DNA of 64,000 nucleotides from Candidatus Melainabacteria bacterium (GCA_023250155.1 JAHFBG010000010.1:17832-81831); one strand, 5' to 3'; counted from the first letter of the stretch, positions 7,460 to 61,811 are shown. Made by a program: numbers and translations. The notes: generated by a model not told the origin, from the sequence alone.

Positions 7460-10400
7460 TTAACGTGATTTCTTCTTCTTTTTCTTAGCTCTTTGCGGAA
7501 CTTCAATTAGCTTAACAGTTCGTCCATAAGGATTTGTTATAACGAGTACAAATTCTCCTTTTATATTCTTATCTAGAATTGTGAAAAGGACATTTGCTTT
7601 TCTTCTACCTTTTCCAATGAATCGTTTTTTAAAGACTAGATTTTCACTTGGAATAATTTCAAATATTGTTTGTGCTACTTTTTTTCTAATTTTCTTGCGC
7701 TTATTTACCAGTACTCGTTTAGCTCTAAAGAAGTTGCCTCCTCTCATTTTTACTCTTAGTCTCTTCTTTTTCCTGAATACTTTTATTTGTTCAATTACTG
7801 GTTGTAAGGTATTTAATGGTTTATTTACAACGCTTATAGGAGAAGTAGAATCAATTCTTGGTTTAACTACAGAGACAACTGTTTGAGCTACAGGAGCATC
7901 ACCAACTAGTATAACCAAGTTTAAAAGAGCTGTATCAGTCAGGTCTTCTGGAACTAAATCAGTGATAAGCAGTGGAGAATCTTCTGCCCCAGGTGGTAAG
8001 TAAACAGATGCTTGTACTTTATGAATTTTTCCAGCATTATCAGTTATTTGTACAAAGATATTTTGATTTGTATTGGTAATCAAATCTTTAATGTTACCAG
8101 TTAGGTTTCTTAAAAATATTGCATTTTCTGATCCAGCTATCAATTGGCTACTATCAAAGGTGCTAACCATTGTGCCATTAACAATATTTGGTACTGATAT
8201 AGGTTCTGAAGAAACAACAGGAATATTTTCTACTACAGGTGGAGGTGGATTTGGAGCTGGTGGATTTGATATAGGATTAGTTGGTGGAGTAGGATTTACC
8301 ACTACTGTACCACTACTGCTTGAGACTCCACCTAATGTATTTAAACCTGTACCTCCTCCTGATGAAGTGGTTGAAGTATTGGTGACTGGACCAGGACTTG
8401 CTGGTGGACTTAATACTGGGAGCAATGAAACTATAAATGTACCGATACTATCTTTTAACTCTATTATTGTTGAAGGAGTCGTATTAGCACTTGGTATAAC
8501 TTCATCATCAATGGTAAACCATAAATTTCTATCTGGTCCCGAAGTAATATCATTTGGAGTACTAAATTTCTTGGGGAGATTATAAGTAGTAATATCTCCA
8601 TTGAGTGAAACCTTTCCTAAGCCATCGTTATTCTTGCCTTTAATAGTAAACCAAATATTCCCATCGGGTCCTACTGTTATACGATTTGGCAAACCAGAAT
8701 CTATAGGAAGATTAAACTCAATAACACTTCCATCAATTGCAATCTTACCTATTTTTTTAGCACCAGATTCTATAAACCAAAGATTGTTATCTGGTCCAAG
8801 AGTAAGATCGCTTGGCAAGCTTGATATTGTAGGAATATCAAATTCTGCAACTCTTCCATCTATTGCAATTTTTCCGATTTTATTTTTGCTTGATTCAGTA
8901 AACCAAATATCCCCATCAGGTCCTAGCGAAAGATAAGCAGGCACATCTGGGACATCAAACTCAGTAATTCTCCCATCTATTGCAACCGTTCCAATTTTTT
9001 TAGCAGTTTCACCAAACCAAAGATTCCCATCTGACCCTGTTGCAATATCTGTCGTAGTAGAAGAGACATCTAATTCTGTAATCATGCCATCAGAAGAAAT
9101 CTTTCCAACTTTATTTTTCAACTTTTCAGTAAACCAAATATTTCCATCAAATGCTGTTGTGATATTAAGTGGACCACTATCATTTTGTGGCAGATCATAT
9201 TCTGTGATTTGTCCATTAATAGAAGCTTGTCCAATTTTATTTTTTCCTACTTCAGTAAACCAAAGGCTGCCATCTAGTCCTTTTGTTATACCAAAGGGAT
9301 TGCTTGCAACTGTTGGAATATCATGTTTTTGTAGTATTGGACCACTCAATAAGCCTGATGACGATGATGATAAAACAACGACAACAGGTGGAACAAACTT
9401 ACAAGCAAATGAAGCTCTACCTATAACATTTGTAGAAGGTTCTGTAAACCACAAATCATTGTCAGGTCCAAAAGCAAGTGAAGATGGTTTAGTAAAGTTG
9501 GTTGTTGGTGCATATTTAAAGAAGTCCCCATCTGTAGTGAGTCTCCATATCCTGCTCTTATTTTTTTGAGTTTTCTCAGTAAACCAAAGACTACCATCAG
9601 GTCCTGTGATTATATTTGCAGGAGAGCAATCAGCAGGAATCTTATACTCAGTAATATTTCCATTATTAGAATCGATTTTTCCAATTCTGTTTCCATCTTT
9701 CTCAGTAAACCAAACATTATCATCAAGTCCAAGGGCTATACCATAAGGACTGCTGTCCTGTGTAGGAATTTTATATTCAACAACGCTACCATCTCTTGTA
9801 ATTCTTCCTATTTTGTTTGCATCAAATTCGGTAAACCATATATCCCCACTGGGTCCAGCTACTATGCCATATGGATTGCTATCTTGTGTAGGTATTTTAT
9901 ATTCTATTATGTCTGAAAAAGTAGGGGCTCCAAGAATGGGTTGCAATGATTGCTGAACAATAATCTTTCCAATCTTATTTCCATCTCTCTCTGTAAACCA
10001 AATATTTCCATCAGGTCCACTAGTTATACCTATAGGTTTACTTTTTAGTGTAGGAATTTTATACTCAGTAAAATCACCGTCTTTTGTAATTCTTCCTATT
10101 TTGTTTGCATCAAATTCAGTAAACCATATATTGTTATCAGAGCCTACTGTTAAGTTAAACGGATAACTGCCTTGTGTAGGAACTTTATATTCAGTAATAT
10201 CTCCATTGTCTGCGATTTTCCCGATTTGATTTCTTCCAGCTTCTGTAAACCACAAATTTCCATCAGAACCTAAAATAATATTTAATGGGTTACTTGCAGA
10301 TTTTAATTCAAATTTCTGAGTTTTATTTATTGGGCATTGTCCAGAAATATCTTCTTCCGGTGAACCTGAAGAGCTTGAAGATGAGCTCGAGGAACTACTT

Positions 10401-13400
10401 GAGCTTCCTGAAGAAGAAGTACTAATTACACTAACGGCAATACCACCTGATGAACTTGAAGAATTTCCTGACGAGCTTGAGCTAGATGAACTAGATGATG
10501 AGCCTGAAGATGAACTGCTACTAGAAGATGATGATGAGACTATAGGAGAAAGGGCTTTACATGAGAATGGAATCTTTCCTACCTTACTACCACTAACAAA
10601 CCAAAGACCATCAACTCCTGTAATTAAGGCATTACCACCACCACCCAAAGATTCATAAACATAAGTATTGTCTTTAAGAGTATAAAGAGAAATCGTTCCA
10701 TCCTTTGTGATTTTTCCAACTTTATTGCCAGCAGGAAACCAAACATTTCCATCCCCGCCTAGTGTTAAACTTCTAGCATAAGTACTGTCTGCAATGTTAT
10801 AAAAAGAAACTGTTCCATCTTTTGTGATCTTTCCAACTTTATTGCCAGCAGGAAACCAGACATTACTATCCCCACCCAGTATTAAACTTCTGGCATAAGT
10901 ACTGTCTTTAAGAGTATAAAGAGAAACTTCTCCATCTTTTGTAATCTTTCCAACTTTATCACCAGCAGGGAACCAAACATTGCCATCCCCACCTAGTATT
11001 AAGCTTCTAGCATAAGTACTGTCTTTAAGAGTATAAAGAGAAACTTCTCCATCTTTTGTAATCTTTCCAATTTTGTCAGTAGCAGCAAACCAGATATTAC
11101 CATCTCCACCTAACACTAAAGAGTTTCCACTCTCAAGAGAATTGGAAGAAATATAAGCATTGTCTTTAAGAGTATAAATAGTGCTCTCTCCATCTTTTGT
11201 AATTTTTCCGATTTTATTGCCAACAGGAAACCAAACATTACCATCCCCACCTAGTACTAAACTTTTGGTAGAAACATTGTCTTTGAGAGTATAAATAGTG
11301 CTCTCTCCATCTTTTGTGATTTTTCCGATTTTAGTATCAGCCGCAAACCAGACATTACCATCTCCACCTAGTACTAAAGGGGTTCCACTGTCATAGAGAA
11401 AAGAAGAAATATAAGCATTGTCTTTAAGAGTATAAAGAGTGTTTTCACCATCTTTTGTAATCTTCCCAATTTTATTCCCAGAAGGAAACCAAATACTGCC
11501 ATCCCCTCCTAGCACTAAACTTCTGGCATAAGTATTGTCTTTAAGAGTATAAAGAGAAATATTCTCTGCTTTCAATTCTTCTGATGAACAGCTTGATCCA
11601 CTTAGAGATGGTATTGTAGGAGAAAGGGCTTTACATGAGAATGGAATCTTTCCTACCTTACTACCACTAACAAACCAAAGACCATCAACTCCTGTAATTA
11701 AGGCATTACCACCACCACCCAAAGATTCATAAACATAAGTATTGTCTTTAAGAGTATAAAGAGAAATCGTTCCATCCTTTGTGATTTTTCCAACTTTATT
11801 GCCAGCAGGAAACCAAACATTTCCATCCCCGCCTAGTGTTAAACTTCTAGCATAAGTACTGTCTGCAATGTTATAAAAAGAAACTGTTCCATCTTTTGTG
11901 ATCTTTCCAACTTTATTGCCAGCAGGAAACCAGACATTACTATCCCCACCCAGTATTAAACTTCTGGCATAAGTACTGTCTTTAAGAGTATAAAGAGAAA
12001 CTTCTCCATCTTTTGTAATCTTTCCAACTTTATCACCAGCAGGGAACCAAACATTGCCATCCCCACCTAGTATTAAGCTTCTAGCATAAGTACTGTCTTT
12101 AAGAGTATAAAGAGAAACTTCTCCATCTTTTGTAATCTTTCCAATTTTGTCAGTAGCAGCAAACCAGATATTACCATCTCCACCTAACACTAAAGAGTTT
12201 CCACTCTCAAGAGAATTGGAAGAAATATAAGCATTGTCTTTAAGAGTATAAATAGTGCTCTCTCCATCTTTTGTAATTTTTCCGATTTTATTGCCAACAG
12301 GAAACCAAACATTACCATCCCCACCTAGTACTAAACTTTTGGTAGAAACATTGTCTTTGAGAGTATAAATAGTGCTCTCTCCATCTTTTGTGATTTTTCC
12401 GATTTTAGTATCAGCCGCAAACCAGACATTACCATCTCCACCTAGTACTAAAGGGGTTCCACTGTCATAGAGAAAAGAAGAAATATAAGCATTGTCTTTA
12501 AGAGTATAAAGAGTGTTTTCACCATCTTTTGTAATCTTCCCAATTTTATTCCCAGAAGGAAACCAAATACTGCCATCCCCTCCTAGCACTAAACTTCTGG
12601 CATAAGTATTGTCTTTAAGAGTATAAAGAGAAATATTCTCTGCTTTCAATTCTTCTGATGAACAGCTTGATAATCCACCTGAAGAACTTGGCGATAAGCC
12701 AGAGCTACTAGAAGATCCGCTTGAAGAGCTTGAAGATAGACCAGAGCTACTGGAAGATCCACTTGATGAAGATGCTAGCAATAAACCACCTGATGAACTT
12801 GAAGAAGAAACAACACAATCTGCAAAACCAAGACAGCTAGATGGGTTTGTAGGACAACAACCATTTATACAACAAAGGGCTCCACACTGTGTATAAGTAC
12901 ACGAAGTAGTAGATGGTGGTACTGGGATACATGTGTTATTAAGAAGTGCAGAAACTTGAGTGGCACTAAGGGCATTGTCATAGATTCTTACTTCATCAAG
13001 TCGCCCATTAAACGAACGATCATATCCTGCCATTGCGCTTTGTCTGGCACCAACAGAAACTATATGTGTATTAGTATCTAAAGCACCTTGAGCAGTACTT
13101 GCACTATTATTTTCTGTACCATTAATATATATGCGTGAAGTGATTCCATCATAAGTAGCTGCTAAATGAGTCCATGCAGTTGAAATTCCACCAGTAGCAG
13201 TAACACCATATGAAGTTCCACCTTTCCAGAAGAAAAAGCGATATTGATTACCAGTGCAGTCTAAACACCAGACCTCACCACCATTTCCATTTCCTTTACA
13301 GGCAATGGCATTGTCATTTGTTTGGGTACTACTATTTGGTTTCACCCATGCAGCAATGGTAACATTAGAAACATTAAACGATGCGTTATTTCCCACGTCT

Positions 13401-13684
13401 ACATAATCATCAGCCCCATCAAGACTCAAACTATAAGAACTACCAAAACACCTATTTGGTATGTCTGTAATTGTTGAATATGTTGGTCCATTAGTTAGTG
13501 TCCCTGTATTAGTTCCTTGAGAGTCAGTTGCTGTAGTACCACTACCTTCTTCAAATGAATAATAAGAAACTAGAGCAGCATTAGCTGACATGACTTGCTG
13601 AAAAGAAAGAAGCAAACAAAGTATAACTTTAAAAAATACTTTAAATACTTGTGGTTTTAATTTAGAAGAGATTTTTTCTAACAT
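7460..13684 (-). CDS. Giant secreted multidomain protein (2074 aa): signal peptide, LamG-like lectin domain, Cys-rich module, two identical 358-aa blocks of eight ~42-aa beta-propeller-blade repeats, Vgb/streptogramin-lyase-like (NHL-like) beta-propeller region (NIWFTE...NKIGKI blades), Pro/Thr-rich segment and a ~100-aa polybasic C-terminal tail
   Basis: Single uninterrupted ORF. LamG signature LDGADDYVDVGN...RLDEVRIYDNALS. Repeated GKITKDGxxTxYTLKDN...LVLGGDGNVWF and GPDGNIWFTExxxNKIGKI blades. Poly-Ser linkers. C-terminal KKKRLRVKMRGG...KKKKKKSR. Confidence 0.85.
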   Translation of the reverse strand: MLEKISSKLKPQVFKVFFKVILCLLLSFQQVMSANAALVSYYSFEEGSGTTATDSQGTNTGTLTNGPTYSTITDIPNRCFGSSYSLSLDGADDYVDVGNNASFNVSNVTIAAWVKPNSSTQTNDNAIACKGNGNGGEVWCLDCTGNQYRFFFWKGGTSYGVTATGGISTAWTHLAATYDGITSRIYINGTENNSASTAQGALDTNTHIVSVGARQSAMAGYDRSFNGRLDEVRIYDNALSATQVSALLNNTCIPVPPSTTSCTYTQCGALCCINGCCPTNPSSCLGFADCVVSSSSSSGGLLLASSSSGSSSSSGLSSSSSSGSSSSSGLSPSSSGGLSSCSSEELKAENISLYTLKDNTYARSLVLGGDGSIWFPSGNKIGKITKDGENTLYTLKDNAYISSFLYDSGTPLVLGGDGNVWFAADTKIGKITKDGESTIYTLKDNVSTKSLVLGGDGNVWFPVGNKIGKITKDGESTIYTLKDNAYISSNSLESGNSLVLGGDGNIWFAATDKIGKITKDGEVSLYTLKDSTYARSLILGGDGNVWFPAGDKVGKITKDGEVSLYTLKDSTYARSLILGGDSNVWFPAGNKVGKITKDGTVSFYNIADSTYARSLTLGGDGNVWFPAGNKVGKITKDGTISLYTLKDNTYVYESLGGGGNALITGVDGLWFVSGSKVGKIPFSCKALSPTIPSLSGSSCSSEELKAENISLYTLKDNTYARSLVLGGDGSIWFPSGNKIGKITKDGENTLYTLKDNAYISSFLYDSGTPLVLGGDGNVWFAADTKIGKITKDGESTIYTLKDNVSTKSLVLGGDGNVWFPVGNKIGKITKDGESTIYTLKDNAYISSNSLESGNSLVLGGDGNIWFAATDKIGKITKDGEVSLYTLKDSTYARSLILGGDGNVWFPAGDKVGKITKDGEVSLYTLKDSTYARSLILGGDSNVWFPAGNKVGKITKDGTVSFYNIADSTYARSLTLGGDGNVWFPAGNKVGKITKDGTISLYTLKDNTYVYESLGGGGNALITGVDGLWFVSGSKVGKIPFSCKALSPIVSSSSSSSSSSSGSSSSSSSSSSSGNSSSSSGGIAVSVISTSSSGSSSSSSSSSSSSSGSPEEDISGQCPINKTQKFELKSASNPLNIILGSDGNLWFTEAGRNQIGKIADNGDITEYKVPTQGSYPFNLTVGSDNNIWFTEFDANKIGRITKDGDFTEYKIPTLKSKPIGITSGPDGNIWFTERDGNKIGKIIVQQSLQPILGAPTFSDIIEYKIPTQDSNPYGIVAGPSGDIWFTEFDANKIGRITRDGSVVEYKIPTQDSSPYGIALGLDDNVWFTEKDGNRIGKIDSNNGNITEYKIPADCSPANIITGPDGSLWFTEKTQKNKSRIWRLTTDGDFFKYAPTTNFTKPSSLAFGPDNDLWFTEPSTNVIGRASFACKFVPPVVVVLSSSSSGLLSGPILQKHDIPTVASNPFGITKGLDGSLWFTEVGKNKIGQASINGQITEYDLPQNDSGPLNITTAFDGNIWFTEKLKNKVGKISSDGMITELDVSSTTTDIATGSDGNLWFGETAKKIGTVAIDGRITEFDVPDVPAYLSLGPDGDIWFTESSKNKIGKIAIDGRVAEFDIPTISSLPSDLTLGPDNNLWFIESGAKKIGKIAIDGSVIEFNLPIDSGLPNRITVGPDGNIWFTIKGKNNDGLGKVSLNGDITTYNLPKKFSTPNDITSGPDRNLWFTIDDEVIPSANTTPSTIIELKDSIGTFIVSLLPVLSPPASPGPVTNTSTTSSGGGTGLNTLGGVSSSSGTVVVNPTPPTNPISNPPAPNPPPPVVENIPVVSSEPISVPNIVNGTMVSTFDSSQLIAGSENAIFLRNLTGNIKDLITNTNQNIFVQITDNAGKIHKVQASVYLPPGAEDSPLLITDLVPEDLTDTALLNLVILVGDAPVAQTVVSVVKPRIDSTSPISVVNKPLNTLQPVIEQIKVFRKKKRLRVKMRGGNFFRAKRVLVNKRKKIRKKVAQTIFEIIPSENLVFKKRFIGKGRRKANVLFTILDKNIKGEFVLVITNPYGRTVKLIEVPQRAKKKKKKSR
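10543..12671 (-). repeat. Two tandem, nucleotide-identical 1074-bp units (358 codons each) inside the giant gene
   Basis: Segments checked at 10561/11635, 10981/12055 and at the unit ends are identical at DNA level. Unit boundaries diverge at 10542/11616 and 11598/12672. Confidence 0.85.
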
Positions 13685-25593: not shown

Positions 25594-25640
25594 ATAAAAA
25601 AAGCTCTTAGTTAAAAGCAAAAGCTAATATCTAAGAGCTA
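25594..25640 (-). terminator. Rho-independent terminator downstream of the tRNA (9-bp stem agctcttag/ctaagagct followed by a T-run on the minus strand)
   Basis: Inverted repeat at 25602-25640. The A7 run at 25594-25601 on the plus strand is a T-tract on the minus strand. Confidence 0.5.
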
Positions 25641-25686
25641 TTTAAAAACTCCCGGGAGAGGACTTGAACCTCCGACCAATCGGTTA

Positions 25687-26193
25687 CTATCTGACTCCAA
25701 TTACTTGGAGAGTCGGACTTTCTCTTCACCTTCAACTTTACGTTAAGGTGGTAGGTGTAAAGTCTCTGCACTCGGATAATTATTTATCCTAGCTCAGGAT
25801 TGCCCGTTATCTCTCGATACTTGGGTTTCCCTGAATTAGCCTACTTTTTCACCGTAATATTACTACTACGGGCTGCTAACTTTGAATGTAACTCTCTATG
25901 GCAATTAGCACATAACATTATGCACTTATCAAGTTCTTCTTTCACTCTGTCCCAACCTCGTGTATATCCTTTACTAGAAATACTAAAGTCTTTTTGTTTT
26001 GGATCAAGGTGATGAAATTCAAGAGCCTCAGCACAGCGAAAATAACCACAAGATTCACATTTGCTACCTTTATATTCAATAGCATTAATTCGAATCTGTT
26101 TTCTTCTCTTTCTAACAGCATTGATTAAATACTGTTTTCTATCACTGTACTTTCTGGTTTCTTTTTTAACCATAGATTCTTAACATTTATTTT
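25687..26193 (-). mobile_element. Group-I-like self-splicing intron (~507 nt) in the tRNA-Asn anticodon loop, carrying an HNH endonuclease ORF
   Basis: 5' exon ends in U and the intron ends AGAUAG (omega-G). The segment after the ORF contains UCAGGGAAACCC (P4-like), CAGAGACUUUACACC (R-like) and AAAGUCCGACUC (S-like). GACUUU/AAAGUC can form P7. Confidence 0.6.
25841..26173 (-). CDS. HNH homing endonuclease (intron-encoded)
   Basis: CESCGY...LEFHHLDPK...CANCHRELH HNH motif. Same strand as the tRNA; starts 20 nt into the intron. Confidence 0.8.
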   Translation of the reverse strand: MVKKETRKYSDRKQYLINAVRKRRKQIRINAIEYKGSKCESCGYFRCAEALEFHHLDPKQKDFSISSKGYTRGWDRVKEELDKCIMLCANCHRELHSKLAARSSNITVKK

Positions 26194-26415
26194 ACAGCCG
26201 ATCGCTCTACCACTGAGCTACCCGGGAATATCAGAGTACAAATTAATTGATAATTAAAAATTGAGAATTGAAAATTAAAGAATTTACTAATCACCAATTT
26301 TTCAGTAACCTATACTAGCGCATTTTAAAACTGCTGTCATCTGATTGTTGAGCTTATGATGTTATAAGTCTAAGGATACAAAAATATCAATTATAATTAA
26401 CCATTAGTAAGACAT

Positions 26416-35229: not shown

Positions 35230-36111
35230 ATGCCACCATTTAAAACATCATGGATTCAAGGAACATCACAAAAAGATTTTAATAAAAATCTAAAGTACTA
35301 CTCAGAGAAAATACAGTCTGCCGCAGAACATGAAGCCAAATTAATTGTGCTTCCTGAGCTTTTTTTATGGGATTATTTCCCGATTTCAGAAGATACAAAA
35401 CATTTTGACTCTGCTATTAGTATTAGTTCAGATGCTATAAAACACTTTCAACTGCTTGCAAAAGATTTAAAAATAGTTTTGACACTGCCTATTTTCGAAA
35501 AAAGAGGAGAAGGCGTTTATCACAATAGTTGTTTGATAATAGAGAACAATGGTGAGATAGTAGGACACTATAGAAAAATGCATATTCCAGATGATCCTGG
35601 ATTCTATGAGAAATACTATTTTACACCAGGTGATTTAGGATTTACTGTTACTAAAACATCTCTTGGAAATATCGGGGTATTGATTTGTTGGGATCAGTGG
35701 TTTCCAGAAGCAGCAAGAATAATGGCTTTAAAGGGTGCTGATATTTTGATTTATCCTACAGCAATAGGATGGGATGACAATGAATCTTGTGAAAATAAAT
35801 CTCGTCAAGCTTTAAATACAGAACAAGTAGAAGCCTGGACTACTATTATGCGTGGCCATGCCATTGCAAATGGTATTCATGTAATGGCTGTAAATAGAGT
35901 AGGGAAAGAAGGACATTTAAACTTTTGGGGACATTCATTTGTAGCTGATCCGTATGGATCTATTATTCATCAAGATAAAACAGATGAGTCTGTTACACAG
36001 GTAGAAATAGATTTTTCTAAAACAAAGGAATGTCGCAGAACCTGGCCATTTTTTAGAGACAGAAGAATAGATAACTACCAAACTCTTTTAAAATCATGGG
36101 ATGGGGAATGA
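35230..36111 (+). CDS. aguB: N-carbamoylputrescine amidohydrolase (carbon-nitrogen hydrolase family)
   Basis: LPELF, ICWDQWFPE (catalytic Cys) and ADILIYPTAIGW motifs. Adjacent to an agmatine deiminase gene. Confidence 0.8.
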   Translation: MPPFKTSWIQGTSQKDFNKNLKYYSEKIQSAAEHEAKLIVLPELFLWDYFPISEDTKHFDSAISISSDAIKHFQLLAKDLKIVLTLPIFEKRGEGVYHNSCLIIENNGEIVGHYRKMHIPDDPGFYEKYYFTPGDLGFTVTKTSLGNIGVLICWDQWFPEAARIMALKGADILIYPTAIGWDDNESCENKSRQALNTEQVEAWTTIMRGHAIANGIHVMAVNRVGKEGHLNFWGHSFVADPYGSIIHQDKTDESVTQVEIDFSKTKECRRTWPFFRDRRIDNYQTLLKSWDGE

Positions 36112-37136
36112 TGGAACGTCATTATCCTCCCGAATGGGGAAAGCAATCCTGTACATGGCTTTCATATCCTCATAATGAAAAAGAATGGGGAAAGAAACGA
36201 TTGCCAAGAATTAGAAAGTTTTATAAAGAATTGATTTCACTTATATTAAATTTTCAGGATGTGAATTTGATTTTGCCGAGTGAGGGTTTTCTCGCAGAGA
36301 CATGCCATGGCATGTCTCAACAAAGGTACAAACTGAAAGAAATAGTAATCCCAAACAATGATATTTGGATAAGAGATTACGGTCCATTTTTTCTTGAGAA
36401 GAAAGTTCGGGGTAAAATAAAACCATTGATTCTTGATTTTGGATTTAATGCTTGGGGAGGAAAATTTTCGCCATGGGATCTTGATGATAACGTGCCTAGA
36501 GAAATTGCTCTATACAAAGGGTGTGAAATAGAATCCTATCCCATGATACTGGAAGGTGGTTCACTTGAGTTCTCAGGCTCTGGTCTTATTCTAACCACAG
36601 AACAATGCTTATTAAACAAAAATCGAAATCCAAAACTAAACAAAAAAGACATTGAGTCATATTTAAAAACGACATTTAATATTAGTGAGATTCTATGGCT
36701 AAAGTGTGGACTAGAAGGAGATCATACAGATGGACATATTGATGATGTAGCACGTTTTATAGATCCAAAAACAATAGTCATTTGTAAAGCAAGTGATAAA
36801 AAAGATAAGAACTATGAACACTTAAATAACAGTATTGAATATTTAAAAAAATGGAAGCATCCAAAAGAAGGATATAAACTAAAGATTATAGAACTACCAT
36901 TGCCACAAAAAATGAAATTAAAAAGTGAAAGATTGCCCAACTCTTATAGCAATTTTATTTTTGTAAACAATGGATTAATAGTTCCAATGTTCAATTGTGC
37001 CACTGACAAAAAAGTACTTAGTATATTTAAAAAGTTATTTCCAAAAAGAAAAGTAGTAGGAATAGATTGTTCACTACTTATAGAAGAAGGTGGCGGGTTG
37101 CACTGTATGACTAAGCAAGAGTCACTTATTACTTAA
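36096..37136 (+). CDS. aguA: Agmatine deiminase (porphyromonas-type peptidylarginine deiminase family)
   Basis: YPPEWGKQSCTWLSYPHN N-terminus and C-terminal GGGLHCMTKQ catalytic Cys. Likely true start at ATG 36108, giving an ATGA overlap with aguB. Confidence 0.85.
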   Translation: MGWGMMERHYPPEWGKQSCTWLSYPHNEKEWGKKRLPRIRKFYKELISLILNFQDVNLILPSEGFLAETCHGMSQQRYKLKEIVIPNNDIWIRDYGPFFLEKKVRGKIKPLILDFGFNAWGGKFSPWDLDDNVPREIALYKGCEIESYPMILEGGSLEFSGSGLILTTEQCLLNKNRNPKLNKKDIESYLKTTFNISEILWLKCGLEGDHTDGHIDDVARFIDPKTIVICKASDKKDKNYEHLNNSIEYLKKWKHPKEGYKLKIIELPLPQKMKLKSERLPNSYSNFIFVNNGLIVPMFNCATDKKVLSIFKKLFPKRKVVGIDCSLLIEEGGGLHCMTKQESLIT

Positions 37137-39172: not shown

Positions 39173-42100
39173 ATGAAAATAATACCTACATTTCTTAGAA
39201 ACTTTATCGCCAATGTTTGTACCACTAAACATAGACAACTAGTTAATAGTGGTGCAAAGCCTGAACACATAAGTGTCTATAATGAAGCCAAAGATGAATA
39301 CTATAAAAATAACTGGAAAGTAAAACAATTATTTGATTTAGATAAAGAGTTAATCATAGCCAATGTATCACCAGAACAATTAAAAGCTTGTAATGAAGTT
39401 ATGATTCAATTTCATAAGAATGAAGTTGATACAAGAAATCTAACTGATGTTTTAGTTAAAACACTTTTACTTAAAGCTACACCTGATCAAATTAAATTGC
39501 TTAGTCAAGGCTTGGTCGGTACTTCTAAAGAATATAAACAAGAGTATGATGCTGGAAGGGATATAGCAGGAGGAGATTATATAACGGTAGAACAATCTGT
39601 AATAAACAAAAACCAACTTATTTTTTTTAGCTTGGTTAGCGCTAATCCCAATACTGCTCAGTGTGAACTGCTGAAATATGTACATGATATAAAATCACAC
39701 AATGTCTGGTCTGGATTGGATTGGAAAGGGTTTGTTGAAGCATACATAAAGCTCTTAAATAAAAAACCTACTAATGAACAATTTCAAAGCTTTAAAGAAT
39801 TTATTAAGGTTTATATGGAGGATTCTAAGAAGCGCGAGCATTTAGTAGAACTAACAAATCATTTTACAGATTTAATCCCAAAATTATATCTAAAAAATGA
39901 TTGGGAATCCTATGGTAAAGCATTTTCAATTTATACAAACAATAAATGGTATTTAGATGATTTTATACATAATGTAGCTGATTTAGCAGGTAGAAAAAAC
40001 TTTGATAAACAGTTAGATGTATATATCAGTGCTTTAAAACAAATTCGATATTTAGCAATAGAGAAGAGTGGCGATGGTTTCCCAAGATATGAGCATGTAG
40101 TAAAAACTTTTAATGATATTTTTTTTCCTGAAATAGCAAACAAAGATCTCCCGAGCAAATACTGGGATTTATTGTCTACAGTATTAAAAAAAGAAGCCAA
40201 TGTTGAAAATAAAGTTTTTCGTACAGACTGGGATGTAATTGAGTTTACTAAATCATTTGTAGATCTTATAAAACTTAGTCTAAATAAAGAGCATCTTGAA
40301 AACTACCATGACATTATTTCTTTTATATATAAAAATTGTAAAAACATAAGTGAAACTACTCCTATTATTAAGTTTGTTTTAGCAAAACCGAGTAAAGAGC
40401 TAATAGAAATATATAAGAAAGCATTGTCTCTTTATACTGTCACTGATCTTCTTAGCTTTCCCGTTTCTCAAGATCGCCTAAAGACCTTATTAATAGGAGA
40501 GTTCAATAGATTAGCTAAAGCTAATCCTCCTAAAAAACTACTTGAAATACTTAACGATAACATGACTACTACTAAAAGTTTTATAGGCAAGCAAATTATA
40601 AAATGTGCTGCATTGGTCGAACCATTTAATACTTATGAAGCAAACAAAGATAAACTAACTAAGCTTAGTTCTGAGATGAAACAATATTTAGAAGATGAGT
40701 GGAAAGAAGAGCTTACTGATGTTAAAAAATTAGATGAACCTAACAAGGTAGATCCCCTACTGAATGAGGTTATTATAAAAAATTTATACCCTCTGTCATT
40801 AAGTGATAAAGAATGGGATTTGTATAATCAAGCTATCTTATATGATAAGGGCTCCACCTATTTAAATTTAAAAATAAGTTTAACTAGTGATTTTGTGCGC
40901 TTAATTAAATCAAAACCAACTCAAGAAGAATGGTTATTATATGAAGATGTTTTTTCTTATTATAAAACAAACAAACTTAAGTCAGATCGAACAATCTGGA
41001 ATCTAGCTTATTTATTTGAAGCTAAACCAGAAAAAGAAAAATTAGATAAATACAAAGAGTGGATAGTTTTATTTCAAGAGAAGGATTTAAGTTTAACTGA
41101 ACTAGTTAAACTTTGTGCACAACTTGCTAAGCCAGGTAATTTCAATAAGTATTTTAATGAGTGCAATAAAGAAATAAAACTTGCTTTAGAAGATGAGGCA
41201 TTAACTAAGGATTTGGATGTATTTTGCAGGTCACTAACTCAATTAATCGATAATGATTGTCTTCCTGAACATATTAAATTGTGGGTTGAAGTATTTGACT
41301 ATCACACTAAAAATCATTGGAGTGTACCAGGTGAAATGTTTGTTAGAGCCGTACAAGATAAGGTTCCGATGCAATTACTTAGAAATTATAGAAACTCATT
41401 AGTAAATGGAATCATAAAGTCACAAGAGGAATCAAAGAAACTTTTAACTGAGTTTCGATATCACTCTGCTATTTATAGAATTCTTAGACAAGAAGGAGAT
41501 ATTGATGCTGCAAGAACTCTTCTTCAAAATGAAGCAAAAAGCGATGAATTGCCAATTAATTTATATATGTCAAGTTCAAAGCATAAGATTCTTAATCCTG
41601 AAGCTATAAAAATACAAACTGAAACGGAAAGAGTTGTTAAAAGATCTTTTGATAAGAGCTATGGTTTCAGTGCACTGACTTTTGATTCTAAAAGATCACC
41701 TACGAAAGAACCTGCTCTATTAGCTCGTTTTGGTAATGATGTAGGAGATATAGAGTATATTAATGCTAAAGACATAAGTCTCTTTCCTGGTAAAGGCTTT
41801 ACAATTTCTGATTTTGATTTAAACAAGATTCTGGTTCCCGATGAAAACAATACAGAAGATCCACATCACCTTTATAAAGAAGCATGGCCATGGGCAAAAG
41901 ATGTATTTGATGACTTTCCAAAAACTGAGTTTGTTTTTACACGAGGATTTATGGCTGTACTAAACAAGGATAAAAAATATATCTTAAATGGAATACCTTA
42001 CAGTTATTTAGTAGTAAATAACCATCACCACAATAAAGGCTGTGATACTGCATATTTAGTACCTACAAAAATATTGGAAGAAAAACTTAAAGATACTAAA

Positions 42101-42937
42101 GTACCATATAAAGACATTATTGGATTTTCTAAAAACCATAAAGATATAAATGAAAATGGTTTAAAAATAGAAGATTTAATTGGGGCTTCAGATGATAATG
42201 CGCCCATATTAAATCTAGGATGGGGAACAAACTTTGGTGGTGGCCTATGTAATGCTTATCCACTAGATTCCAAACCTTATTTTGAATGGGAGAAAGAACT
42301 AAGACCTCAAATTCATCATACAAAAGACTTTTGGGAAAGGGTCCATAAGTCACATATTACTGGTACATATGAGACCAGTATGTCAAGAGATCCAAAATTC
42401 AAAGAACTATTAAAACCTTTACGGCAAGCACATGATGATGTTTATAAGATTACGGATAACTATCAAAATCTTTATGACTTATTTAGATTATATTTTTCTA
42501 TGTGGAAAAAAGGATTTACAGTAGGTGAAAAAGAAATTACAGAAGAAGATTTATTTCAAGAACTTGAACCACAAAACTTAGAGCAAGATGATAATGATTT
42601 TGTCTATAATCCAAACTCACTTAGGATGTTAAATGAAGCCTATAAATGGCATGAAGGAAGAAGCCTTGGAATAGAAGATAAAAATTATTATCCAGTTCTT
42701 GTTATAACTGATACCCTTGATTATTGGAGTCAACCTAAGTCACCAATTATGCTGGACACCTATGACATGATGCTTTATACAAATGGTAAAAAAATCCCAT
42801 TAAATCAAGAAGGAGTGGATGATATAGAAAAAGAAATATGGTATAAATTAGTGATGCCACAAGCCAAAGACTCTATAAAAGATCTAAGGTTTTATGATAG
42901 GAGAGATCTCGACTTATTAGGAGGAAATAATCAATGA
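39173..42937 (+). CDS. Large unclassified protein, paralog 1 of 3 (1254 aa): conserved N-terminal ~110 aa, helical-repeat array, conserved His/Cys-rich C-terminal ~480-aa domain
   Basis: Shares MKIIPTF..LV.AGA..EHI...SPEQLKACNEV N-terminus. C-terminal blocks YGFSALTFD.KR.PTKE, NNHHHNKGCDTAYLVPT, NLGWG.NF.GGLCNAYPLDSKPYF and HKSHITG are shared with the other two. Confidence 0.8.
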   Translation: MKIIPTFLRNFIANVCTTKHRQLVNSGAKPEHISVYNEAKDEYYKNNWKVKQLFDLDKELIIANVSPEQLKACNEVMIQFHKNEVDTRNLTDVLVKTLLLKATPDQIKLLSQGLVGTSKEYKQEYDAGRDIAGGDYITVEQSVINKNQLIFFSLVSANPNTAQCELLKYVHDIKSHNVWSGLDWKGFVEAYIKLLNKKPTNEQFQSFKEFIKVYMEDSKKREHLVELTNHFTDLIPKLYLKNDWESYGKAFSIYTNNKWYLDDFIHNVADLAGRKNFDKQLDVYISALKQIRYLAIEKSGDGFPRYEHVVKTFNDIFFPEIANKDLPSKYWDLLSTVLKKEANVENKVFRTDWDVIEFTKSFVDLIKLSLNKEHLENYHDIISFIYKNCKNISETTPIIKFVLAKPSKELIEIYKKALSLYTVTDLLSFPVSQDRLKTLLIGEFNRLAKANPPKKLLEILNDNMTTTKSFIGKQIIKCAALVEPFNTYEANKDKLTKLSSEMKQYLEDEWKEELTDVKKLDEPNKVDPLLNEVIIKNLYPLSLSDKEWDLYNQAILYDKGSTYLNLKISLTSDFVRLIKSKPTQEEWLLYEDVFSYYKTNKLKSDRTIWNLAYLFEAKPEKEKLDKYKEWIVLFQEKDLSLTELVKLCAQLAKPGNFNKYFNECNKEIKLALEDEALTKDLDVFCRSLTQLIDNDCLPEHIKLWVEVFDYHTKNHWSVPGEMFVRAVQDKVPMQLLRNYRNSLVNGIIKSQEESKKLLTEFRYHSAIYRILRQEGDIDAARTLLQNEAKSDELPINLYMSSSKHKILNPEAIKIQTETERVVKRSFDKSYGFSALTFDSKRSPTKEPALLARFGNDVGDIEYINAKDISLFPGKGFTISDFDLNKILVPDENNTEDPHHLYKEAWPWAKDVFDDFPKTEFVFTRGFMAVLNKDKKYILNGIPYSYLVVNNHHHNKGCDTAYLVPTKILEEKLKDTKVPYKDIIGFSKNHKDINENGLKIEDLIGASDDNAPILNLGWGTNFGGGLCNAYPLDSKPYFEWEKELRPQIHHTKDFWERVHKSHITGTYETSMSRDPKFKELLKPLRQAHDDVYKITDNYQNLYDLFRLYFSMWKKGFTVGEKEITEEDLFQELEPQNLEQDDNDFVYNPNSLRMLNEAYKWHEGRSLGIEDKNYYPVLVITDTLDYWSQPKSPIMLDTYDMMLYTNGKKIPLNQEGVDDIEKEIWYKLVMPQAKDSIKDLRFYDRRDLDLLGGNNQ

Positions 42938-43167
42938 TGACTATTAGAACAGTAAGAAGTGTATTTGCAGCACCAGCGGCACCACCACAAGCTCCACCAA
43001 AACAACCAGACACAAAGCCTGATACACAACCAGCTCCATCAAAACCTGCTCCAGCACCACCAAAACCACAGCCAGTAAAACAGCCTACACCTACACCGAT
43101 TAAAGAACCTTGTCCAAAGCCCAATGGAGAACCTATTCCTGGAATTTGTCCGATCAATGATCCGTAA
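42934..43167 (+). CDS. Small proline-rich protein (77 aa), translationally coupled to paralog 1 (ATGATGA overlap), C-terminal GEPIPGICPI motif
   Basis: Start overlaps the upstream stop. Composition PAPSKPAPAPPKPQP. C-terminus is conserved with ORF 51132..51374. Confidence 0.6.
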   Translation: MMTIRTVRSVFAAPAAPPQAPPKQPDTKPDTQPAPSKPAPAPPKPQPVKQPTPTPIKEPCPKPNGEPIPGICPINDP

Positions 43168-43225
43168 TGACGTTACCCGATCATTGATTTTTTTTAATGC
43201 TTAGGTTACTTTAGACACTAATAAA

Positions 43226-46200
43226 ATGAAAATTATCCCAACATTCTTTAGGAAGTTTGTTGCTTCTTTGCCATTTACTAAAACAAGAAGTTTAGTAAAA
43301 GCAGGTGCTACCTATGAACATATAAAAGTATTTAATGAAATCTATAATCAATTTTATAAAAACAATTGGAATGCTAAAAAATTAGTTGAGGATGAAAAGA
43401 GTTTTATAGCATTAAATGTATCACCTGAACAGCTAAAAGCCTGCAATGAAGTTCTTATTCACTTTCACAAGGAAAAAATATTGACAACACACTTAGTAGA
43501 TATATTAACTGAAATGCTTTCATTAAAAGCCACACCAGAACAAATATCTTTAGCAAAAAAATACTTGACCATTGGTTCAAAAAAAAGTCTTTATATTAGT
43601 CCTGGAATCATTCCAAAAGAACAAAAAAGTTTTTTTAATTTGATAAAAGAAGGTCCATCAAAAGAGTATTGTGCATTGTTTGAATCTATACCATTAAACA
43701 ATCGTAGAACAGTTGCTTCTAATTTTAGTAGAGTATCAACTGAACTATTAAAAGAAAATTTGAGCACTGATCAATTAAAGCTATATAAGGATACAGTTGA
43801 TTATCATTTTGAAAACAAGTTTAGCGTTTACGAGTTAATGTGTTTGCTTAATAAGCTGATTAAAGAAAATAAACCACCTGAACAATGGAATGCTTGTGCT
43901 AAAGCCCTTAATATCTATAAAGAAAATAAGTGGGAAATAGATGAGTCTACTTTTATGTTGGTTGATATTTTAAAGAATCATAATGTTAATAATAAAGCGA
44001 ATTTATATATTTTAGGGATCTCTAGGTGTAAAGAACAAAAACTAGATCATGATCAGGCAGCCTTTACAAACAGTTTTAAAGAACTACTAAAAATATATCC
44101 TTCAAAAGATGATTTAGATCTATTTGAACAAGGACTACAAAACTGTTCAAATCCTATAGAGTGGACTAATTACTTTACGTATCTTTTAAAATTAAGCCCA
44201 AAAGAAAATAAATATAATGTTTATAAAAAATATTGCTCACTTCTTTTAAAAGATGGAGAAGATATTCAAGATGTAACAAGAGTATTTACAAAGTTAATCA
44301 TGAAAGGACAACCATCAAAAGAAATAGAATCCTGTTTTCAAATATACTTCAATTTAACATCTCATATAAAAACCAATTACAATAATACATTCAATGTAAA
44401 TAGTGTCATTGACATAGTTTTAGCCAATCCAGATAAAGAACTAATAGAACTATATAAAGAGACTTTGTCAGTCTATTCAAAAGCAAAAACTAAAACACCA
44501 CTTAATCCACTTGCTAAAGAGTTTTTAGAATATATAAAATCAGATCCAGAACCTATACAACAAGAGCTCTATAAACAAGGACTAGAAGCACATAAAGACA
44601 ATTATGTCTTAATGGAAAAATTTATATCTATGAGTATCGCTTTAACTAAGGCACATAAAGACTATGAACTATACAAAGACAAACTAAAATATCTTGCACC
44701 TGAAATAAAAAAAGACTTAGAAGATGAATGGATCTATGCATTTACGGATACTCATATGCTAGCTAAATATAAAGATATATCGATATCTTACTATCCACCA
44801 TTAAATAATCAAATCGTCAGATTAAGTTATAAAGATTTTAGAGAAAATAAAGATATATGGGACATCTACAATGAGCTTGCTTTAAGTCAAAGGAAAAAAA
44901 ATCTGTCTCTAGTAGACTTTACAAGAGACTTTGCTGCATTAACTCTTCTAGAACCAAGCAAAGAATATTGGGACTTATATAAAAAAGCTATTTCTTATCA
45001 CATAGAACATGATTTTCCTCTTACAGATCTAACTGGACATCTAGCGTCATTAGCATATGCAAAATCATATAGTAAGAATTTAAAGATCTATGATGAAGCC
45101 ATAAACTATTTTAAAGATCGCAAGCTTCCACTGGATAAATTAATTAGTAGTTTTGTTACATTGGCAAAATACAATGTTCAATATGACTTTTTAAAAGAAT
45201 TTTATAAGATACAAGCATACTTTCAAGAAAACAATATCGATGCTAATGACTTTAACAAACAAGCTGCTCTCTGGGCTAAAGACAATATAAGTGGAGAACA
45301 TTTAAAAATCTTCAAGGAATTATATGTAGGTTATCTAAATAAAAAATGGGACCTGAATGAGCTAAAAACAGATTTAATACTTTCTATAGAAGAAGAGTAT
45401 CCAATACAACTTTTAAGAAATATTAGAAATGAAATTCAAAATGGAAGTATTAAATCGGCAGAAGAAGCAGAACATCTGTTTCAAGACATCAGATTTCATA
45501 CAGCAATTTACAAAATACTTAGACAAGAAATAAGCAAAGATGAAGCTAAAAAGATTTTATCCATTTTTGGAGGGGCACAAGCAGACTCTCTACCTGTTCA
45601 TATATATTCAAATTCTACTAGGCACGAATTTAATCCAGAAGCAATAAAAATACAGAATGAAACTGAAAGAGTTTTTACAAGACTTTTTGATTTAAATTAT
45701 GGTTTTAGTTCTTTAACAGTAGACTGTAAAAGAACACCTACTAAAGAATCTGCTTTATTAGCTAATTTCGGCAATGATGTGGCAAATGTCAACTATATTA
45801 ATGCCAAAGATATAAGTCTTTTTCCAGGACGTGGTTTTGAGATTTCTAGTTTTGATTTAAATAAAATTTTAATTCCAGATAAAACAAATCCAACAGACCT
45901 ATACCATCTTTATAAAGAGTCGTGGCCCTGGGCTAAAGAAACACTAGATAATTTTTCGAAAACCAAGTTTATATTTACTCGTGGTTTTGTAGTTATAACT
46001 AATCCTGATAAAAAATATATATTAAATGGAACTCATTATAGTTATTTTGTAGTAAACAATCATCATCACAACAAAGGCTGTGACACTGCATATCTTGTGC
46101 CTACTGAAATACTAGAAAAAAAATTAAAAGGAACTACAATTCCATTTATGGATTATGTTGGAGTTTCAAAAAACCACAAAGATATCAATGAAGCGGGCTT

Positions 46201-47008
46201 ACAACTTGATGATTTAGTAAAAGATGCTAATGAAAAGGGATTACAAGTGCTAAATCTTGGATGGGGATCTAACTTTAGCGGTGGCTTATGCAATGCTTAT
46301 CCACTTGATTCAAAGCCTTATTTTAAATGGGAGAAAAAATTACGTGGTAAGCATACAAAAGATTTTTGGGGAAGAGTTCATAAGTCTCACATCACAGGCT
46401 CTTGGCAATCTAGAATGTTTGACGATCCAAAGCTCAAGAAATTGTTAGCCCCTTTAAGAAAAGCACATGATGAAATCTATACACTAACAAATGATTATCA
46501 AAATCATTTTGACTTGTTTAGATTGTTTTTTTCTATGTGGAAAAAAGGATTGACTGTGGGAGAAAGAGTATTAGAACCTACTAGTGATGACTTGTTCCAA
46601 GAACTTGAACCCCAGAATTTAGAACCTGGACAGTTTGATAAAAGTGCTTTTGATAATGAAATAACCAATAGAGAAGCGATTTTAGAATACTCAGAAAATC
46701 CAAACTCCCTTAGAATGCTGGTTGAAGCATACAAATGGCATGAAGCTAAAAAACAAGGGATTAGTGGTCCTAATTTTTTCCCTATCTTAGTAGTAACGAA
46801 TACACTAGACTACTGGAGTCAACCAGAATCAAAGATTATGCTTGATACTTACGATATGACTATTCATGCTGATGGTAAAACTATTCCTTTAAATGAAGAA
46901 GAGTTGACTTTTATAGAAAAAGGATTGTGGAATAAGAGCTTCTTACCTTATATGCTTGACTCTACAAAAGATTTAAGGTTTTATGACAGAAGAGATTTGA
47001 ATATGTAG
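43226..47008 (+). CDS. Large unclassified protein, paralog 2 of 3 (1260 aa); no coupled small ORF
   Basis: Same N- and C-terminal conserved blocks as paralogs 1 and 3; divergent middle. Confidence 0.8.
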   Translation: MKIIPTFFRKFVASLPFTKTRSLVKAGATYEHIKVFNEIYNQFYKNNWNAKKLVEDEKSFIALNVSPEQLKACNEVLIHFHKEKILTTHLVDILTEMLSLKATPEQISLAKKYLTIGSKKSLYISPGIIPKEQKSFFNLIKEGPSKEYCALFESIPLNNRRTVASNFSRVSTELLKENLSTDQLKLYKDTVDYHFENKFSVYELMCLLNKLIKENKPPEQWNACAKALNIYKENKWEIDESTFMLVDILKNHNVNNKANLYILGISRCKEQKLDHDQAAFTNSFKELLKIYPSKDDLDLFEQGLQNCSNPIEWTNYFTYLLKLSPKENKYNVYKKYCSLLLKDGEDIQDVTRVFTKLIMKGQPSKEIESCFQIYFNLTSHIKTNYNNTFNVNSVIDIVLANPDKELIELYKETLSVYSKAKTKTPLNPLAKEFLEYIKSDPEPIQQELYKQGLEAHKDNYVLMEKFISMSIALTKAHKDYELYKDKLKYLAPEIKKDLEDEWIYAFTDTHMLAKYKDISISYYPPLNNQIVRLSYKDFRENKDIWDIYNELALSQRKKNLSLVDFTRDFAALTLLEPSKEYWDLYKKAISYHIEHDFPLTDLTGHLASLAYAKSYSKNLKIYDEAINYFKDRKLPLDKLISSFVTLAKYNVQYDFLKEFYKIQAYFQENNIDANDFNKQAALWAKDNISGEHLKIFKELYVGYLNKKWDLNELKTDLILSIEEEYPIQLLRNIRNEIQNGSIKSAEEAEHLFQDIRFHTAIYKILRQEISKDEAKKILSIFGGAQADSLPVHIYSNSTRHEFNPEAIKIQNETERVFTRLFDLNYGFSSLTVDCKRTPTKESALLANFGNDVANVNYINAKDISLFPGRGFEISSFDLNKILIPDKTNPTDLYHLYKESWPWAKETLDNFSKTKFIFTRGFVVITNPDKKYILNGTHYSYFVVNNHHHNKGCDTAYLVPTEILEKKLKGTTIPFMDYVGVSKNHKDINEAGLQLDDLVKDANEKGLQVLNLGWGSNFSGGLCNAYPLDSKPYFKWEKKLRGKHTKDFWGRVHKSHITGSWQSRMFDDPKLKKLLAPLRKAHDEIYTLTNDYQNHFDLFRLFFSMWKKGLTVGERVLEPTSDDLFQELEPQNLEPGQFDKSAFDNEITNREAILEYSENPNSLRMLVEAYKWHEAKKQGISGPNFFPILVVTNTLDYWSQPESKIMLDTYDMTIHADGKTIPLNEEELTFIEKGLWNKSFLPYMLDSTKDLRFYDRRDLNM

Positions 47009-47169
47009 TGAGCTAAGAATATCTTTTTAATTTGTTTATTTATTTTAATCTGAATTGTCACAAGCTTAAATTTATTTAGTACTCTTAACCTTGGAAAAAT
47101 TTAATTATTCAAAACAAGAAAAACACTTGACCTTTTTTCTTATATGATCTATTCTATATAGACATATAT

Positions 47170-60479: not shown

Positions 60480-61811
<1,332 letters not shown>

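Follow-up and report, generated by a model that had tools for sequence, protein, structure and literature searches.

A group I intron with an HNH reading frame between positions 35 and 36 of a tRNA-Asn(GUU) gene on a probably Melainabacteria-like chromosome

Classical bacterial tRNA introns, as found in Anabaena, Azoarcus, and Synechocystis, belong to subgroup IC3 and interrupt tRNA-Leu(UAA) between positions 34 and 35, tRNA-fMet between 33 and 34, and tRNA-Arg(CCU) as well as tRNA-Ile(CAU) between 36 and 37. The number of intron-split bacterial tRNA types was raised from 4 to 21 by Williams (bioRxiv 10.1101/2020.01.27.920355), and a tRNA-Asn type was catalogued there in 2020 as ‘Asn.4Ug’, as far as that work is cited in PMC13011429. 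Introns at position 35/36 were found 28 times in 4,934 complete bacterial genomes, with 19 in Patescibacteria, three in Cyanobacteriota, three in Nitrospirota, and three single cases; 15 tRNA-Asn introns of this class were reported from 95 complete patescibacterial genomes (Nakagawa et al, mSystems 2026; PMC13011429). Subgroup covariance models placed 25 of the 28 in subgroup IA, and precise self-splicing in vitro was demonstrated for one tRNA-Asn and one tRNA-Asp intron (PMC13011429). The same survey, which covers complete genomes only, describes four HNH (PF01844) reading frames in tRNA-Asn 35/36 introns, all of them in Patescibacteria, and HEG-bearing 35/36 introns from this group only, while more such introns are predicted from draft genomes (PMC13011429). 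Endonucleases of other families occupy other tRNA introns, namely PD-(D/E)XK in tRNA-fMet and LAGLIDADG in tRNA-Arg(CCU) (PMC13011429), as opposed to the HNH type described here.

Here, we analyse a 64-kb stretch of DNA (hereafter the window, 64,000 nt) whose tRNA-Asn gene is split by a group I intron, as judged from the covariance-model match, the reconstituted tRNA, the fit of P1 and P10, covariation among relatives, and homology to the published introns. Based on this anatomy, the element is with high probability a group I intron of the mobile type, which harbors an HNH reading frame, lies between U35 and U36 of tRNA-Asn(GUU), and would splice and home as proposed below. The first-pass annotation had regarded an Asn(GUU) host combined with an HNH endonuclease as unusual. 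This view cannot be upheld, as the type was catalogued in 2020 and four HNH-bearing cases appear in the 2026 survey (PMC13011429).

The split tRNA-Asn(GUU) gene

The minus strand of the window harbors a tRNA-Asn(GUU) gene, the only tRNA gene of the window, in two halves separated by 507 nt (Table 1). Joined, the exons comprise 72 nt, which ARAGORN reads as tRNA-Asn(gtt) with a regular cloverleaf. When compared to E. coli records, the joined sequence finds its best matches in annotated tRNA-Asn, with 85–87% identity over positions 7–61 and thus across the junction. Moreover, eight junctions can be drawn within the anticodon loop, a single one of which combines a U at position −1 with a G as the last intron base, and this junction yields the loop CUGUUAA. 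The insertion therefore lies between tRNA positions 35 and 36, and both ARAGORN and the annotated tRNA-Asn matches identify the product as a canonical tRNA-Asn(GUU). The first-pass annotation had placed the two halves at this distance on the minus strand, with the 5′ exon ending in ...GGCUGU (U35), the intron in ...AGAUAG, and the 3′ exon resuming with UAACCGAU, and it had assigned the gene to Asn(GUU) on the basis of this junction; the positions are exact to the base, and the assignment stands.

In its default mode, ARAGORN detects no tRNA anywhere in the 64-kb window, while with introns allowed it returns tRNA-Asn at c[25648,26228] with i(36,507), just as had been predicted for standard tRNA finders. 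The published patescibacterial tRNA-Asn introns are likewise missed or mis-called by such programs. A gene hidden in this way would let a genome bin of the lineage score as devoid of tRNA-Asn.

The 3′ exon does not encode CCA, and a terminator scan identified no terminator 3′ of this exon. By eye, and below the criteria of the scan, two 9-bp arms (AGCTCTTAG...CTAAGAGCT) that enclose a 20-nt loop and precede TTTTTTT are seen just after the exon, at approximately 25600–25645 of the minus strand; this inverted repeat may serve the tRNA gene as a terminator. Further, contig L001 (metagenome ERZ27280021) equals the window at 100% over 3,525 nt up to the tRNA discriminator base. Past window position 25648/25649 (L001:3525/3526), contig and window diverge completely (CCATTCACAACC... 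against TTTTTAAATAG...), and CCA is encoded in L001 only. Neither a repeat of the tRNA 3′ end nor a copy of the alternative downstream sequence of L001 was found in the window. An integration or a rearrangement at this end of the tRNA could have caused the breakpoint, as could an assembly chimera.

Ribozyme core and covariation

The intron, described as group-I-like in the first-pass annotation, is recognized by the Rfam model Intron_gpI (RF00028), the sole Rfam family matched in the 64 kb. The match is full-length (25929..25694 on the minus strand, model positions 1–253) and scores 79.6 bits at a gathering cut-off of 50 (E 1.4e-18). P1 and P10 lie outside the model placement and were located by hand. 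Two motifs noted in the first pass find their place within this fold: The ‘P4-like’ GGGAAACCC corresponds to the end of P4, J4/5, and P5, and the complementary ‘R/S-like’ elements are the two strands of P7. Folded alone by free-energy minimization (MFE), the 194-nt core recovers P2, P4–P5a, P6a, P8, and P9 with z = −4.2. Together, the U-G wobble at the 5′ splice site, the omega-G, and a P3–P9 core that includes the P3/P7 pseudoknot and contains covarying helices place the element in group I.

Table 1. Features of the split tRNA-Asn(GUU) gene, its intron, and the HNH reading frame (window coordinates)
Feature	Coordinates	Strand	Remarks
5′ exon of tRNA-Asn(GUU), nt 1–35	26227..26194	−	TCCCGGGTAGCTCAGTGGTAGAGCGATCGGCTGT; last six bases GGCUGU (26199..26194) form the P1 5′ strand; U35 is the −1 U
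Group I intron, 507 nt, between tRNA positions 35/36	26193..25687	−	Rfam RF00028; ARAGORN i(36,507)
HNH endonuclease ORF, 110 aa, in the P1 loop	26173..25841	−	between the 5′ splice site and the guide sequence
P10 5′ strand, GUUA	25880..25877	−	forms 4/4 pairs with the UAAC at the start of the 3′ exon
Internal guide sequence, GCAGCC	25876..25871	−	pairs with exon GGCUGU to form P1, 6/6, G-U wobble at the splice site
P2 hairpin, GUAA loop, 7 conserved pairs	25852..25871	−	outermost (eighth) pair includes a C that also belongs to the guide sequence; MFE and covariation
P3 5′ strand, GUAGG	25840..25844	−	covariation
P4 (UCAGGG/UCCUGA), J4/5, P5 (CCC/GGG), P5a with GAGA loop	25794..25834	−	Rfam model, MFE, alignment
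P6 and P6a hairpin	25770..25793	−	poorly aligned among relatives, 58% paired
J6/7 and P7 5′ strand (GACU 25764..25761)	25761..25769	−	invariant GCAGAGACU; alignment of relatives
P3 3′ strand, CCUAC	25751..25755	−	covariation
P8 hairpin	25727..25750	−	covariation of the outer helix; MFE
J8/7 (AAGAGAA) and P7 3′ strand (AGUC 25719..25716)	25716..25726	−	AGUCC invariant
P9 hairpin, GUAA loop	25693..25714	−	inner three pairs compensatory; MFE
Omega-G, final intron base	25687	−	G in 65/65 mapped relatives
3′ exon of tRNA-Asn, nt 36–73	25686..25649	−	TAACCGATTGGTCGGAGGTTCAAGTCCTCTCCCGGGAG; U36 A37 A38 ... discriminator G

The structure of the window intron was counted on an alignment of 62 introns that begins at the CANCH codons and extends to the 3′ exon (alignment A2). 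Standard pairs occupy 75.6% of the cells, a figure that includes one mis-specified extra P7 pair scored as unpaired, compared to 63.4% for shuffled partners (0 of 500 shuffles as high) and 30–47% for slid partners. Similarly, the covariation score amounts to 0.348, versus 0.135 after shuffling and 0.06–0.14 after sliding. At the level of individual helices, P3 is paired in 100% of the cells with changes on both sides in four of its five pairs, P2 in 89% (seven of eight pairs), and the outer helix of P8 in 80% (five of six), while all three pairs of the inner P9 segment change on both sides. The P7 pairs are formed in 62 of 62 introns without variation; being nearly invariant, P4 and P7 speak neither for nor against the structure. 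P1 forms all six pairs in 59 of 65 loci, with both strands nearly invariant, and the GCAGC of the guide sequence is invariant in the 62 relatives. P10, counted in the register of the window, is paired at 47% across the family and complete (4/4) in 19 loci only.

The HNH reading frame and its relatives

The coordinates and the 110-aa length of the HNH reading frame given in the first-pass annotation are exact. Its Pfam HNH (PF01844) score of 22.3 bits passes the gathering threshold of 21.4 marginally, and the same profile matches 19 of 25 aligned family members. A PDB profile search returned the McrA HNH motif as the only solved relative, with a weak match. The protein contains all invariant columns of the family (C39, C42, H54, H55, C88, N90, C91, H92, and H96), which make up a CxxC...HH...CxxCH zinc and catalytic motif, and pN/pS of the reading frame is 0.20–0.28 against six relatives. 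The retained motif columns together with a pN/pS of about 0.2 indicate an intact gene under purifying selection. By eye, no obvious Shine-Dalgarno sequence precedes the ATG of the reading frame.

The reading frame runs into the ribozyme. Its final codons AAG UUA GCA GCC CGU (K-L-A-A-R) double as P10, guide sequence, and P2 (25841–25885, minus strand), and its UAG stop codon lies within the 5′ strand of P3. In relatives, the reading frame often extends through P3–P5, where ‘SGLIQGN’ corresponds to ..GGCUUAAUUCAGGGAAAC.., while a second group of relatives reads the guide GCAGCU in another frame, giving ‘LQLP’ versus ‘KLAA’. The C-terminal tail of the intron-borne proteins (columns 30–140 of A2) is encoded by ribozyme elements and thus conserved as RNA; the overlap with the guide sequence, P2, and P3 implies that translation and ribozyme folding must compete. 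Reading frames reaching into core sequences are already known from some group I introns (PMC3984707).

At least 1,670 homologues of the HNH protein are present in the protein database, the top ones being 65–82% identical, and the named sources among those listed comprise Melainabacteria, Omnitrophica, NPL-UPA2, and Ignavibacteriales. Scanning GTDB with a single genome for each species reveals a relative in at least 582 genomes. The best 80 of these are most often labeled Omnitrophota, and the remainder carry labels of ‘Planctomycetia’, Bacteroidota/Ignavibacteria, Nitrospira, Elusimicrobia, Acidobacteria, Deltaproteobacteria, Patescibacteria, Melainabacteria, Aerophobetes, Margulisbacteria, Edwardsbacteria, and others. 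At 78 of these 80 loci, the gene resides inside or right beside a split tRNA when ARAGORN is run with introns allowed, and all 78 read ...G[GA]CUGU / intron ...G / UAA[CU]C, i.e., tRNA-Asn(GUU) split at 35/36. The remaining two, L024 and L052, gave no split-tRNA call; both contain a tRNA-Asn-like 5′ exon, and a 3′ exon was not found. About 30 of the 78 related tRNA-Asn genes (loci L004–L083) are mislabeled by ARAGORN as Thr(cgt/tgt), Pro(cgg), or Tyr(gta) via a shifted intron boundary. HNH-bearing tRNA-Asn introns are thus clearly not confined to Patescibacteria, the sole group with such introns in the 2026 complete-genome survey, and the counts suggest that the element is far more widespread than a survey of complete genomes could see.

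An insert of 32–73 nt between P7 and the P3 3′ strand, possibly P7.1/P7.2, is present in 33 of the 62 introns and absent in 29, the window and 28 of the 61 others (columns 367–439 of A2). Introns with and without the insert carry the same HNH family, and the window shares the insert-less form with the one Patescibacteria locus (L011).

Three loci display a different arrangement, in which the HNH homologue is free-standing, approximately 100–200 nt up- or downstream of a tRNA-Asn gene: L048:1483-2291, deposited as an Omnitrophica MAG, L057:1399-2216, as a ‘Candidatus Elulimicrobium’ MAG, and L067:1023-1791, as a ‘Candidatus Saccharicenans’ MAG. The 35/36 introns of these tRNA genes are devoid of a reading frame and measure 312, 236, and 251 nt, respectively, and the free-standing proteins end right after CANCHRExH, without the ‘KLAA...’ tail. 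The same arrangement was proposed in 2014 as the step before endonuclease entry (PMC3984707). There, phage protein genes were concerned, whereas here the target is a tRNA gene in cellular chromosomes; in the window, the HNH gene is inside the intron.

It is conceivable, although we hold this view only tentatively, that HNH gene and intron constitute a single, currently mobile element, which horizontal transfer has carried into the universally conserved tRNA-Asn anticodon arm of bacteria from at least ten phylum-level groups, and that its relatives preserve a natural series of an endonuclease gene entering an intron. If so, the free-standing HNH genes beside introns without a reading frame and the intronic reading frames in two frames would represent this series in cellular chromosomes.

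Host chromosome and proposed mechanism

With argG, acpS, and genes for agmatine deiminase, a CN hydrolase, an HdrD-like protein, and several very large proteins, the window looks unlike a reduced patescibacterial genome. At 80% identity, the argG product (60489–61811) is closest to its counterpart in Candidatus Melainabacteria bacterium RIFCSPLOWO2_02_FULL_35_15, which is the MAG of L005. Additionally, the acpS side of the intron locus is syntenic in the window, L004, and L005, with the deposited labels ‘Gammaproteobacteria’ for L004 and Melainabacteria for L005. Judged by the argG homologues and this synteny, the host chromosome is probably non-patescibacterial and Melainabacteria-like, with conflicting MAG labels, and the intron seems to be passed on at one fixed position beside acpS.

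NCBIfam names argG and a flavoprotein as the only ones among ten neighboring proteins. Three consecutive ORFs of 1254, 1260, and 1321 aa (39173–51135, plus strand) lack any Pfam match; the first two share 43% identity along their whole length and thus make up a tandem paralogue family. A 2074-aa ORF (7460–13684, minus strand) combines a Laminin_G_3 domain at its N terminus with eight beta-propeller repeats of the Vgb_lyase type (875 bits). The CN-hydrolase gene adjoins the agmatine deiminase (PAD_porph) gene (35230–37136, plus strand), the usual pair for the conversion of agmatine to putrescine.

From the in vitro splicing of a homologue and the constant association of HNH gene and tRNA-Asn 35/36 site (78 of the 80 best loci), we infer a pathway of splicing, HNH cutting, and homing. 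The tRNA-Asn gene would be transcribed as a precursor of approximately 580 nt, in which the guide GCAGCC, located 317 nt into the intron, is expected to pair with the exon end GGCUGU to form P1 and thereby to place U35 in a U-G wobble. The compact P3–P9 core would then bind guanosine, leading to cleavage after U35. GUUA, directly 5′ of the guide, would form P10 with the UAAC that opens the 3′ exon, and upon entry of omega-G into the G site the exons would be ligated, releasing a tRNA with the anticodon loop CUGUUAA. In parallel, the 110-aa HNH protein may cut intron-less tRNA-Asn genes near the anticodon, and repair would copy the intron into the cleaved site.

The main competitor to this scheme retains splicing and differs in the role of the protein: The HNH protein would no longer be a working homing endonuclease, and its gene would be a vertical passenger or serve another role, for example by helping splicing. 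Vertical inheritance fits the shared syntenic locus in the window, L004, and L005, and the lack of an obvious ribosome-binding site before the reading frame, as judged by eye, also speaks for a non-homing protein. However, the reading frame is intact, its HNH and zinc-ligand columns are kept at a pN/pS of about 0.2, and proteins of 60–80% identity under many phylum labels are hard to explain without recent mobility. We thus consider a non-homing HNH protein unlikely, yet still well ahead of the two readings that follow, each of which retains only a very small probability.

If the locus were a dead tRNA-Asn pseudogene, disrupted by insertion of an HNH gene and unable to splice, the blank ARAGORN default output would be readily understood. 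Such a pseudogene would, however, hardly preserve a complete group I core that passes the Rfam cut-off and has covarying helices, nor two perfectly conserved exons forming a complete cloverleaf; moreover, the same arrangement recurs in dozens of genomes, and a homologous intron splices in vitro (PMC13011429). On these grounds, we reject the pseudogene as highly improbable. Even less credible is a junction two bases upstream (33/34), which would turn the product into tRNA-Thr(UGU) or another isoacceptor. ARAGORN labels approximately 30 related loci as Thr, Pro, or Tyr, but the shifted boundary behind the Thr label is a documented artefact, which was disproved when the spliced product was sequenced (PMC13011429). 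In the window, the gene is called Asn, the spliced sequence matches annotated tRNA-Asn, and U(−1) and omega-G coincide at 35/36 only, where P1 and P10 also fit; the tRNA-Thr junction is therefore rejected. The mobile 35/36 intron in tRNA-Asn(GUU) remains the preferred reading.

Comparison with known introns

With the classical IC3 tRNA introns, the window intron has in common a core of approximately 190–200 nt without large peripheral domains, a site in the anticodon loop, and P1 and P10 helices built from the anticodon arm. In contrast, it occupies another tRNA (Asn) at another site (35/36), outside the insertion positions of the IC3 class, and the published 35/36 introns are classed as IA, not IC (PMC13011429).

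The closest match is to the published tRNA-Asn 35/36 introns, with which the window intron agrees in host tRNA, insertion site, and the GCAGCC guide sequence. Core motifs are likewise common to both, namely GCAGAGACU, GA(A/U)GAGA(A/U)AGUCC, and GNRA-capped P2 and P9 hairpins. The HNH-bearing intron of Paceibacteria GCA_016699425.1, taken from Table S3 of PMC13011429 via its CANCH codons, encodes a protein that is 61% identical to the window HNH (E 3e-37), and its reading frame is located in the P1 loop as in the window. Further, the window core aligns with that of the in vitro-spliced Saccharimonadia intron (GCA_016700035.1; alignment A3), the guide sequence, J3/4-P4, GCAGAGACU, and J8/7-P7 being shared. 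The Saccharimonadia intron differs by an insert of approximately 33 nt between P7 and the P3 3′ strand, which is absent from the window intron, so that splicing activity is extrapolated to a somewhat different core.

While this instance leaves the understanding of group I introns unchanged, it extends the HNH-bearing tRNA-Asn 35/36 introns beyond Patescibacteria, the only hosts found in the 2026 complete-genome survey and a group to which the host of the window probably does not belong. The window intron is a further member of the described tRNA-Asn 35/36 intron family, in another bacterial lineage.
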